Shown piece after piece: positions 61,096-64,000 of a stretch of 64,000 bases of DNA. The stretch is from Verrucomicrobiota bacterium (lineage in GTDB: Bacteria; Verrucomicrobiota; Verrucomicrobiia; Opitutales; Cerasicoccaceae). The stretch spans positions 564,460 through 628,459 of the forward strand of contig JBCBUK010000001.1 in NCBI GenBank assembly GCA_039818205.1. Direction: 5' to 3'. Within the stretch, counting starts at the first letter, position 1. The number at the start of each line of letters is the position of its first letter. A model generated the notes under the pieces. That model saw nothing but the letters and a program-made list of their open reading frames with translations. It did not search any database and was not told where the DNA came from. Both the position numbers and the translations under genes were made by a program.

Positions 61096-61185
61096 GGAGA
61101 GGTGACAGAGTGGCCGATTGTGCTTCCCTGGAAAGGAAGTGTGCCGGAAACGGTACCGAGGGTTCGAATCCCTCCCTCTCCGCCA
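61096..61185 (+). tRNA. tRNA-Ser (anticodon GGA), CCA encoded
   Basis: Acceptor GGAGAGG/CCTCTCC, anticodon arm CTTCC-CTGGAAA-GGAAG, long variable arm, GGTTCGAATCC T-loop, G discriminator + CCA. Confidence 0.97.
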
Positions 61186-61192
61186 TCACTTT

Positions 61193-61222
61193 AGGTCTAG
61201 TTCGCCGCTAGGCCTTTATTTA
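61193..61222 (+). terminator. Terminator hairpin after tRNA-Ser
   Basis: AGGTCTAG..CTAGGCCT followed by TTATTT. Confidence 0.6.
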
Positions 61223-61317
61223 TGCCCAAACGAAGGCTATCACTGGGCTTGAGGAGATTTGGGTATCGCTCCGCTTGCACGACTCAGATTGCAAATAATT
61301 GCCTCTTGCGAGAAAAT

Positions 61318-61336
61318 GTAGTAACTCAGTTACTAC
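61318..61336. promoter_or_regulatory. Perfect 9-bp inverted repeat just upstream of the integrase start
   Basis: GTAGTAACT-C-AGTTACTAC, 6 nt before ATG 61343. Confidence 0.55.
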
Positions 61337-61342
61337 CTAAAA

Positions 61343-62410
61343 ATGAACATTTATAAGCGGAAGCGGGAAGGAAGAGCGAAGCCATGGGAGGCTTGCTGGT
61401 ACGTTGATAGAAAACGGAAAAGCCGCTTCTTTGCGACCAAGAAAGAGCGTGACGCCTGGATCAAACAGAACGGCAAGGAAGGCGGGCTAGATACCTGGCA
61501 GGAAATTCGCGAAAAGTGTGAAGAGTTTGGAATCGATCCATTACACATAATAAATGATTATATCCGTACGAATTTTCCTAATGACCGAGTTACAATCAAC
61601 CAGGCAGTCGACGACTTGCTCGAATCCAAAGAGCATCGCGACAAATCTTACCTCTGTCATTTGTCCGGCTTCCTGCAAAAGAAGTTCGTCCCGGAGTTCT
61701 CGCACCTGGCCCCGCACCAAATAGACTCCCACAAGATCCGCAACTTCCTCAACGGACTGACCTCCCATCCGGTTACGTTCCGCAACTACCGGAACTACCT
61801 GCGGATCTTCTTTAACTTCTGTGAACGCGAAAAGTGGATCGTCAACAATCCGGTCAAACACGTTCCACTACTGGAAGCGCCACCAGAAGAAATTCGATTC
61901 CACAAACCAAAGGAGGTAAAGCTACTGCTCGAGTCCGCGCGGACCAGCGAGAAGCAAATCCTCCGCGATATGCTTCCCCTACTCGCCCTGCAAGCCTTTG
62001 CCGGCATCCGATCCGAAACGGCCTACAAAATGGAATGGGACATGATCGATTTCGACCGAAAGGAAATCGTGATTCCCGCGGCCATCATGAAGAAGCGTCG
62101 CAAACACATCATGCAAGGCCTCGAAGACAATCTTTGGCATTGGCTCAACATCTGCGACCAGTCGAAAGAGCTTAGCATGACCGCCCGAGCATTCCGTCAC
62201 CGCAAACGACAAGTCCTGGACCTATCCGGAGTCGAAGACATCAAAAACGGTTTGCGCCATTCATTTGCAACTTACCATGTTACCCTTCATCAAAGCGCCG
62301 ATAAAACCGCCCTACTCATGCCCCACCGCTCCGCAACCGAGCTCTGGGAACACTACTACGGTGCTGGACGTTCTACTGATGCCAAGGCTTACTTCGAGAT
62401 CGTGCCATAG
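61343..62410 (+). CDS. Tyrosine recombinase / phage-type integrase
   Basis: N-terminal arm-binding-like region, NPV, AGIRSE (Arg), KNGLRHSFATY (H->N variant of HxxR), LMPH, EHYY (Tyr); adjacent to the tRNA 3' end. Confidence 0.93.
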   Translation: MNIYKRKREGRAKPWEACWYVDRKRKSRFFATKKERDAWIKQNGKEGGLDTWQEIREKCEEFGIDPLHIINDYIRTNFPNDRVTINQAVDDLLESKEHRDKSYLCHLSGFLQKKFVPEFSHLAPHQIDSHKIRNFLNGLTSHPVTFRNYRNYLRIFFNFCEREKWIVNNPVKHVPLLEAPPEEIRFHKPKEVKLLLESARTSEKQILRDMLPLLALQAFAGIRSETAYKMEWDMIDFDRKEIVIPAAIMKKRRKHIMQGLEDNLWHWLNICDQSKELSMTARAFRHRKRQVLDLSGVEDIKNGLRHSFATYHVTLHQSADKTALLMPHRSATELWEHYYGAGRSTDAKAYFEIVP

Positions 62411-62487
62411 CCATTGCCGCGATTCGCTTCTCTCACCCAGTCGGGAACATCGCTCTGCTCGTTTCGCTACACGATTTTCTCGCTAGT

Positions 62488-62543
62488 AACTAACGCGGAG
62501 AGTAGCCGCGCCGTGAATCGTCACCTAGCTCGCCTGGTTATGC
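62488..62543 (-). repeat. attC-like site 3 (56 bp)
   Basis: Minus strand: R'' GCATAAC, 5 nt, L'' GAGCTAG ... L' CTACTC (one extra base in L''), 5 nt, R' GTTAGTT. Confidence 0.75.
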
Positions 62544-62552
62544 TGTTAGTTT

Positions 62553-62918
62553 TCATTCCTTCGAGTTGGTCTGGTGCCTCGAAATATCTTCAAGGTAGAT
62601 ATTTTCTGAAGTAGTGCAAATAAGCTCAATCAAAATACCACTCTCTTCTGATAGTTCGCAGCAGCACTCGACCAAAGACTTAATGCCTGAAAAATCTGGC
62701 TCAAAGTGACTCACTCTAATTTCTATTTTTTCTTTGTCGATGCCACTGGCGCTCCCGCATCGATCAAGTTCTCTCTTTAGGTCTTCTTCGATGGCTTGTT
62801 CTGCTGATCGACCATGGCTCAACGCGTAACCGAATTCTTCTTCTATTCTTCTGAATTCATTTTCCTGAAAGAGGCTAACCGCATGGAGGCCAGCTTCGCT
62901 TAACGCTTCGTCTGTCAT
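62553..62918 (-). CDS. Hypothetical protein, gene cassette 3
   Basis: 121-aa acidic ORF filling the space between two attC-like sites. Confidence 0.8.
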   Translation of the reverse strand: MTDEALSEAGLHAVSLFQENEFRRIEEEFGYALSHGRSAEQAIEEDLKRELDRCGSASGIDKEKIEIRVSHFEPDFSGIKSLVECCCELSEESGILIELICTTSENIYLEDISRHQTNSKE

Positions 62919-62921
62919 TTT

Positions 62922-63011
62922 CTTCTGCGTTTAGCGTAACCGGGTGGCGACGGTTGGCGTCGATTTTAAATTCGCCGTGAATCGCCACTCCGGTTCACGC
63001 AGCTGTTATAC
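62922..63011 (-). repeat. attC-like site 2 (R' damaged)
   Basis: Minus strand: R'' GTATAAC containing the stop TAA; GCGTGAACCGG-A-GTGGCGA pairs with TCGCCAC-CCGGTTACGC (extra G and A); the expected GTT reads GCA. Confidence 0.8.
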
Positions 63012-63554
63012 GGCTGTTTTCGTGGTCTCTGCTGCCGCTGGGGCAACTCGCAGGACAAGCCACATGACGACACTGACGATGATCAGTCCACCGTACAAGA
63101 AGCTGACTGACCTGAATGTCATGACACCAAGTAAGTGTGTCTTTCGCCAGTTGTCCCAATCTGAAATTGAATATTCTGTACGGTTACGCATCTCTAGTAG
63201 TGGAAAGTCAGTGGCTTCCCCGGTTTCCGCTGCGTTTCGAAACGACTGGCTATTTACGTGGTCAGAAATGTCTTTGACGCGAACAATGAATGATCGCTGA
63301 ATTCTTCGAAATGAAGCGTCCACGAACCAAAAGAGAAAGGGAATTACGGCGGTCAACCAAAGGTATGGGTGTAGTTGCGACTGCGAAACAGCTAGCCCAA
63401 TACTCGCCGTCCACGTAACGATCGCCCAGTTCTTGATGCTTTTTGTAATTTCGTCTTGTTGGCCGATCGCCTTGTTGACGAGATCAAGCTCCATCTTCAG
63501 CAAATCGAACTGCGTGTCGAACGCTCTTGTCGAATTAGTGACTTCGTCTGCCAT
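63006..63554 (-). CDS. Three-TM membrane protein, gene cassette 2
   Basis: 182 aa; KSIKNWAIVTW, FWFVDASFRRIQR, C-terminal TM; bounded by GTTATACGGC...GCCGTATAAC. Confidence 0.85.
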   Translation of the reverse strand: MADEVTNSTRAFDTQFDLLKMELDLVNKAIGQQDEITKSIKNWAIVTWTASIGLAVSQSQLHPYLWLTAVIPFLFWFVDASFRRIQRSFIVRVKDISDHVNSQSFRNAAETGEATDFPLLEMRNRTEYSISDWDNWRKTHLLGVMTFRSVSFLYGGLIIVSVVMWLVLRVAPAAAETTKTAV

Positions 63555-63591
63555 AGATCATGAATTGTGCGAAAGTGCAATTGGGATTGCC

Positions 63592-63663
63592 GTATAACGT
63601 CAAAGTGTGGCGATGGCTGTGGAGCGGAGCGTAACAGACATTGCCACCACTGCCTTGTTCTGT
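63592..63663 (-). repeat. attC-like site 1 (72 bp)
   Basis: Minus strand: R'' ACAGAAC, AAGGC, L'' AGTGGTGG pairs with L' CCACACT (extra G), TTGAC, R' GTTATAC. Confidence 0.85.
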
Positions 63664-63676
63664 GTAGTTGATTTCT

Positions 63677-64000
63677 TCATATCCAGTCGAAGAAACGGGT
63701 CCTCCAATTTGGAAAATCTGAGTTTCCTTTCATAACTCCGTCGTAATCCTTCTCAAGTTCGTCGTTTGGGATGTAGGTGAATCCTTCCTCGTTGAGAATG
63801 CCTTCTATTCTTTCCATCTCTTCCTCTTCGAATAGATCGCCCCAGCCGATATTCGTCATATCTCCAAAATTGCTGAATCGAAGAGCAGGCTGAATAATGT
63901 AATCCTTTTCTGTATTTTCTCTTTCTTTGAAGATTATCGCTATGCTGAAACTAGCGTCCTGATTGTAGATGGCCCCTTCAAAAACGGTGTGCTCAGATAG
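63677..64000 (-). CDS. Hypothetical protein, gene cassette 1 (5' end outside the window)
   Basis: Frame open to the edge: ...QDASFSIAII...LRFSNFGDM...GFTYIP..L...YDG...WRTRFFDWI*; the track shows only the last 60 aa. Confidence 0.8.
   Translation of the reverse strand, partial: LSEHTVFEGAIYNQDASFSIAIIFKERENTEKDYIIQPALRFSNFGDMTNIGWGDLFEEEEMERIEGILNEEGFTYIPNDELEKDYDGVMKGNSDFPNWRTRFFDWI

Follow-up and report, generated by a model that had tools for sequence, protein, structure and literature searches.

An integron-type cassette array facing a phage-type integrase at a Verrucomicrobiota tRNA-Ser gene: a probable attI-headed array without a working intI

In this study we analysed the end of a 64,000-nt stretch, called the window here, of contig C1 of the Verrucomicrobiota bacterium assembly GCA_039818205.1, where three short cassette genes with integron-type attC sites run head-on against a phage-type tyrosine integrase beside tRNA-Ser(GGA). 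We regard it as probable that these cassettes are the 3' tail of an attI-headed array without a working integron integrase gene (intI), carried as cargo by a small tRNA-Ser integrative element.

Layout of the locus and its attC sites

The following features make up the locus, in window positions:

61096-61185, plus strand: tRNA-Ser(GGA), the integration target (ARAGORN)
61168-61186, plus strand: 19-nt att core, the inferred attL (blastn)
61193-61215, plus strand: terminator-like hairpin 3' of the tRNA, in a leader common to the islands on contigs C9, C14 and C22
61317-61336, plus strand: palindrome GTAGTAACT-C-AGTTACTAC, predicted integrase arm or operator site (sequence)
61343-62410, plus strand: phage-type tyrosine integrase of 355 amino acids (aa), not IntI (phrog_1, PF00589, TIGR02249, Arg spacing)
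62411-62490, no strand assigned: 80-bp element, terminus of the array (sequence comparison with C14 and a congener)
62488-62543, minus strand: attC site 3, 56 nt, GTT intact, weak hairpin (31.5 bits; z about 0)
62553-62918, minus strand: cassette gene 1, hypothetical protein of 121 aa, GC 44% (open reading frame, ORF)
62922-63011, minus strand: attC site 2, 90 nt, folds well, lacks the crossover GTT (fold; no model match)
63006-63554, minus strand: cassette gene 2, likely membrane protein of 182 aa (PADLOC; DUF2270 below cut-off)
63592-63663, minus strand: attC site 1, 72 nt, GTT intact (39 bits)
63677-64000, minus strand: cassette gene 3, open at the contig end, the last 107 aa of a hypothetical family of ~150 aa (homologue matches)

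The end of the window (64000) is also the end of C1, and the 5' end of the array lies outside the assembly. The original prediction, made from the letters alone, had placed the tRNA-Ser, the integrase, all three minus-strand genes and each of the palindromes at coordinates that prove correct. It was also right that the GTT is intact at sites 1 and 3 and absent from site 2, which reads GCA, and that the TAA stop of gene 2 lies inside the R'' box of site 2.

To score attC sites we used R1, a home-built covariance model of 16 sites, of which five came from the complete integron of a congener, one from another congener, ten from other arrays of this genome and none from the window. Six matches in the 64 kb reached the threshold of E<=5. 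Of these, site 1 (39 bits, E 7.7e-9) and site 3 (31.5 bits, E 1e-6) matched across the full length of the model, and the other four scored 11.7 bits or less. Site 2 was not matched in this search; it has every attC box (R'', spacers, L'', L', R') save the GTT, and its bottom strand folds best of the three (z -4.0 to -4.25). The matches of sites 1 and 3 to this model support the earlier claim that the array contains integron-type attC sites. The identity of the palindromes as repetitive extragenic palindromes or another genome-wide repeat was rejected, as cassette arrays account for 16 of the 17 genome matches to R1 at E<0.002, with the remaining match standing alone, in a search that scored 150 of 1140 candidates and included the training sites.

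A cassette inserted at G|TT begins with the reverse complement of its own R'' box. Cassette 2 shows this boundary perfectly, with the R' of site 1 being the exact reverse complement of the R'' of site 2. Among 19 hand-picked junctions of this genome with both ends readable, 14 agree at all four variable positions, compared with a mean of 1.16 in shuffled pairings, and none of 100,000 shuffles reaches 14. The start of cassette 1 violates this pattern, probably through a short deletion spanning the crossover, and site 2 is probably dead; with its crossover point likely gone, excision would take out genes 1 and 2 together.

The cargo consists mostly of hypothetical proteins, with TIR proteins in the paralogous arrays. 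The product of gene 2 shows a weak likeness to the candidate defence family PDC-M50A (PADLOC E 1.1e-7) and a match to DUF2270 below the cut-off. Gene 3 was matched by 45 of 46 candidates, and the homologues span all 107 aa, which led us to reject the idea that it is chimeric. Two marine sequencing runs contain contigs that match only sites 1 and 2 (62928-63000 and 63594-63660), with 0-7 differences; because these contigs match the sites alone, the attC types of sites 1 and 2 recur in other settings.

The integrase, the paralogous island and the attI module

The window integrase matches PHROG phrog_1 (E 2.2e-21) and, slightly below the cut-off, PF00589 (Phage_integrase, 26.5 bits), and it gives no match to TIGR02249, to which a congener IntI used as control scores 342 bits. 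The spacing of its catalytic Arg residues is 82 aa, compared with 134 aa in four of four IntI proteins. The silence of TIGR02249 together with this spacing indicates that the enzyme has no IntI insertion, in agreement with the original prediction of a non-IntI integrase at the 3' end of the array. In the integrase alignment A3, residues R223, K250, R305 and Y338 are invariant, and an Asn occupies the usual position of the first His of HxxR. None of the Pfam arm-binding models matches the window integrase, for which the original prediction had named an arm-binding-like N-terminus. The palindrome at 61317-61336 in its leader is a putative integrase arm site, as predicted from sequence. A 13-mer from this palindrome occurs three times in the 4.85-Mb genome, once in the leader of the window integrase and once on each of C9 and C39, 47 nt inside the copy of the tRNA-Ser 3' end, and the loci bearing it would be the two ends of one element family. 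On contig C14 a related integrase has a different leader palindrome (C14:3592-3610), which matches a direct repeat inside the presumed attR on C2 (C2:2293-2310). Because these two agree with each other and differ from the window motif, the motifs at the element ends seem to vary from one integrase to the other.

Integrative elements that target tRNA genes with lambda-like tyrosine integrases are a known class. The window element resembles them in the integrase beside the tRNA 3' end, the short core with its candidate duplicates and the motif found again at these candidate ends; it differs in that its visible part is without replication or transfer genes and that it probably carries an attI-headed array instead. 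Close relatives of the integrase with genomic context were found in neither genome nor metagenome contigs, and the two close homologues (72% and 69% identity) exist only as Logan records that carry no DNA. On C45, a piece of integrase with 97% identity adjoins a rolling-circle Rep (PF23343) and a helix-turn-helix (HTH) gene, and this Rep-linked piece points to a replicating relative. The small element there (positions 1-2938 of this locus) has the truncated integrase fused to the end of the Rep, carries HTH and ribbon-helix-helix genes, and terminates in an attC common to C14 and C2.

A guide to the missing part of the locus is a paralogous island in the same genome. Contig C14 carries tRNA-Ser(GCT), an integrase of 68% identity, a single gene on the plus strand, the 80-bp element and a convergent array. 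A 77-nt overlap joins C14 to C2, which adds one further cassette, a module of 285 bp that ends in G|TT, two more genes and a 20-nt copy of the tRNA-Ser(GCT) 3' end; no intI was found on the C2 part of the island. By this join the order is attL, integrase, convergent cassettes, attI and attR, and the boundary of the first cassette at this attI is perfect.

The module was identified from its copies and its neighbours. Seven blastn matches to it occur in this genome, two of them partial, and the copies agree up to the G|TT and then diverge at once. In the congener G003 it stands back to back with a full-length intI, at 71% identity over ~265 nt, which identifies the module as attI with its upstream region. 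As an observation in its own right, the full-length intI on contig C11 of G003 has one premature TGA, and an attC of the array there resembles window site 1.

For the far end of the window element, the 19-nt att core at 61168-61186 has an exact second copy at C39:5110-5128 and another, differing by one change, at the right end of C9 (blastn). These two unlinked candidates for the far-end direct repeat, C39 with 19 of 19 nt and C9 with the one core change, both have the 13-mer, and the attI module, ~200 bp inside the tRNA copy, is whole on C39 and represented by its distal 59 nt only on C9. Since the right ends on C39, C9 and C2 hold the module, whole or in part, the window array most likely starts at attI, at the end distal to the integrase. 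The right end of C9 (C9:211540-211580) has a peculiarity of its own: the final 25 nt of the contig are an inverted piece of the attI module that ends at an inverted repeat of 9 bp. Either an invertible segment of ~50 bp acting as a promoter switch or an artefact of the contig end may account for it. Immediately upstream of the tRNA, the window carries an ordinary nuo (complex I) operon on the minus strand (53576-60885, named from ORF translations). In the congeners, tRNA-Ser(GGA) lies far from nuoB or on a different contig, so that synteny gives no right end.

The 80-bp element at the terminus of the array invites a different explanation, in which there is no attI and IntI dropped cassettes at a secondary GTT in this repeat, after which others piled up at attC sites. 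The element is 99% identical at the end of the C14 array, and a 78% homologue lies in an intergenic region of a congener with no array there, so in both arrays the terminus is a GTT within a repeat that has, elsewhere, a homologue without an array. Insertion by IntI at genomic GWT sites has been published (10.1101/2022.09.11.507474), and the tRNA-Arg array on C5 is without an attI module. However, the C14 array also ends at this repeat, and it leads to an attI at which the boundary of the first cassette is perfect; we consider an attI-free origin unlikely.

Full-length intI was found in three congeners, one of them with an internal stop; that of G001 is intact. In our assembly, the catalytic region of IntI is absent from all 66 contigs and no intI scores over the family cut-off. 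The G003 IntI protein matches N-terminal pieces only, on C39, C1 (two) and C48 (tblastn), and the stub on C39 is 72% identical to it. An ORF on C7 that had been read by eye as an intI stub was rejected, having no tblastn match to four IntI proteins. These findings bear on the simplest alternative, namely an ordinary complete integron in the island, whose intact intI and attI would lie in the gap beyond 64000. The gap is real, and coverage declines toward it; the congeners do have full-length intI, and one candidate right end, C39, carries the stub just described. Yet the catalytic region is missing from the assembly, the paralogous island has an attI and no intI, and both candidate right ends leave only ~200 bp between the module and attR, which makes a complete integron here improbable in our judgement.

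The paralogous layout with attI and no intI, together with an assembly without full-length intI, thus favours one of the two options in the original prediction, an integron tail or a group of clustered attC sites that has no integron integrase (CALIN) as cargo of an integrative element. According to the reading that we prefer, the attI-headed array as cargo, the unassembled part would hold more cassettes and an attI module ~200 bp inside attR. IntI, acting earlier or in trans, would have placed the cassettes singly at attI, an action whose signature is seen at the cassette boundaries and whose enzyme source is conjectural. The phage-type integrase would recombine attL with attR only, using the arm-like motif at both ends, and would move the whole array in one block as the island goes in and out at tRNA-Ser.

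Several points weigh against this reading. The attI and attR of the window element would lie beyond the assembled contig and are unseen, and the right end of C1 has no overlap with other contig ends among the overlaps listed. C39, which has the exact core, is joined in the assembly through its intI stub to C16 and not to C1, and the C14-C2 join is one of two graph paths, as C45 also joins C2. The model R1 is home-built and partly trained on this genome. The hairpin of site 1 is only moderate (z -2.2), and that of site 3 is no better than shuffles as a minimum free energy fold (z -0.02 and -0.21). Finally, in the contigs of one sequencing run mapped to the stretch, no excision or attP joints are listed. 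The contigs of a run that possibly represents the source sample, X1, cover 60500-63792 and leave 63793-64000 uncovered; its depth is 33x over chromosomal sequence, 18x over the integrase and 12.5x over the array, and several differing sequences lie behind the tRNA. We did not use these depths as evidence of excision, as they come from one run and depth is not a share of cells.

Occurrence in relatives

The wider distribution of attI was followed with two core patterns, both written from the loci discussed here, so that the counts are partly circular. The first core occurs five times in this genome and nine times in G003, and is present in 2 of 16 family genomes. The second, which lies beside the intact intI of G001, occurs four, four, four and one times in G001, G002, G008 and G005, respectively, and in 4 of 301 genomes. 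The attI pattern had no matches in the metagenome collection and none in the viral collection. Relatives carry 1-9 dispersed cores per genome, mostly away from tRNAs or phage integrases; among seven further core loci, six have a downstream attC match on the same strand and none has a tRNA. The genome G008 is a single contig with four cores, and intI was not found in it. In G003, four modules without intI (on its contigs C5, C3, C35 and C36) share a unit of 341-349 bp (82-92% identity) whose upstream edge is the same in all four, a pattern that suggests copying once intI had been lost. Plain loss fits others that adjoin intI stubs. The upstream edge of the shared unit is sharp and starts with G-G/A-TA, resembling a cassette start, and IntI may have moved the unit whole; a single rule of the G|TT type for the upstream edge of solo modules was rejected, as it fails for some copies.

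These observations allow a broader idea, which we put forward tentatively and consider somewhat doubtful, of a distributed integron. In this bacterial family, the attI-promoter module would be copied around the chromosome without intI, and each copy would capture cassettes through one trans-acting IntI. In the present genome, minimal tRNA-targeted elements, consisting of integrase, attI and array, would have acquired such modules and serve as mobile, satellite-like cassette carriers helped by Rep-encoding relatives.

The original prediction had also raised the possibility of a hybrid element that gathers cassettes behind its phage-type integrase; in the form weighed here, this enzyme would recombine the attC sites itself. 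In its favour, the head-on layout is found in both full-length close paralogues of this genome, in the window and on C14, and the assembly is without an intact intI. This idea is not supported: the arrays grow at attI, far from the integrase, and attI stands beside a true intI in the congener G003. We examined 40 loci of relatives, 39 around R1 matches and one around the homologue of the 80-bp element, with recombinase queries comprising 15 integrases, four IntI and two Xer, which may miss more distant recombinases. A tRNA was found at four, an intI stub at one and a phage-type integrase at one, and at this lone locus the array lies on the opposite side of the tRNA; similar arrays therefore exist without such an integrase at nearly all relatives' loci. 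Conversely, at 87 loci of related integrases (50 viral with flanks of up to 6 kb and 37 genomic with up to 1.5 kb), R1 gave four lone matches and no attC cluster; these integrases are distant (20-37% identity where given), the flanks are short, and R1 may miss foreign attC. The association of array and integrase is thus known from this genome alone. As the window integrase has no IntI insertion and does have tRNA-core sites and an arm-like motif of its own, we consider collection of cassettes by this enzyme very improbable.

Comparison with known systems and further arrays

CALINs, their proposed origins and their mobilisation in trans have been described in PMC4889954, 10.1101/2022.09.11.507474, 10.1101/2025.06.18.660453 and PMC8618304. 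The 2016 study of CALINs proposed intI loss, rearrangement and insertion at secondary sites as their origins, listed Verrucomicrobia among integron carriers, and stated that attI is not searchable in most integrons (PMC4889954). The arrays of this group resemble CALINs as described there in having two or more attC sites and no nearby intI and in being small, but many of them retain a conserved attI module, in 1-9 copies per genome, and some lie inside small tRNA-targeted integrative elements. In the window, sites 1 and 3 provide the at least two attC sites of a CALIN, and no intI is present in the assembly, with the adjoining DNA unassembled. With the complete chromosomal integrons of G001 and G003 the arrays share the attI module, the kind of attC and the G|TT boundary signature; they differ in that the head of the paralogous array is without intI and the assembly has N-terminal stubs only. 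Insertion at attG sites (Loot et al., 10.1101/2022.09.11.507474) likewise yields integrase-less cassettes at dispersed GWT sites and fits the end of the array at the repeat GTT, but it accounts for dispersed cassettes and not for dispersed attI modules; that work also reports recombination of attI1 into genome sites at levels not above background.

The locus thus holds genuine cassettes, most likely as cargo, beside an integrase of ordinary kind, and would be a CALIN with a retained attI; the less ordinary aspect is the multi-copy attI platforms without intI. Our search for reports of such modules, or of such an island layout, found nothing in the partial literature available. If the reading is true, many CALINs of this group would be attI-headed platforms able to take in and express cassettes given IntI, and not mere decayed tails, which bears on how CALINs arise and whether they are useful. 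The tRNA island as a vehicle would move integron arrays without a transposon. The bolder idea of a phage-type integrase acting on attC is unsupported, which limits the surprise.

Further arrays of the genome were noted in the course of this work. Upstream of the window, C1:89500-92640 holds an attI module, some seven cassettes in partial decay and an intI start with a frameshift. On C5 (C5:74952-79630), a tRNA-Arg(CCG) island combines a truncated integrase with five attC sites that share its orientation; the tRNA 3' end recurs at the far end of the island, in which no attI module was found. A third attI-like core, at which the boundary of the first cassette is perfect, heads an array beside tRNA-Arg(TCT) on C7 (C7:95398-97680), and similar cores head arrays in G001 and G008. 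In addition, C16:13079-14107 carries seven tRNA genes in ~1 kb, including a tRNA-Asn with the anticodon ATT, and is possibly part of a mobile element.

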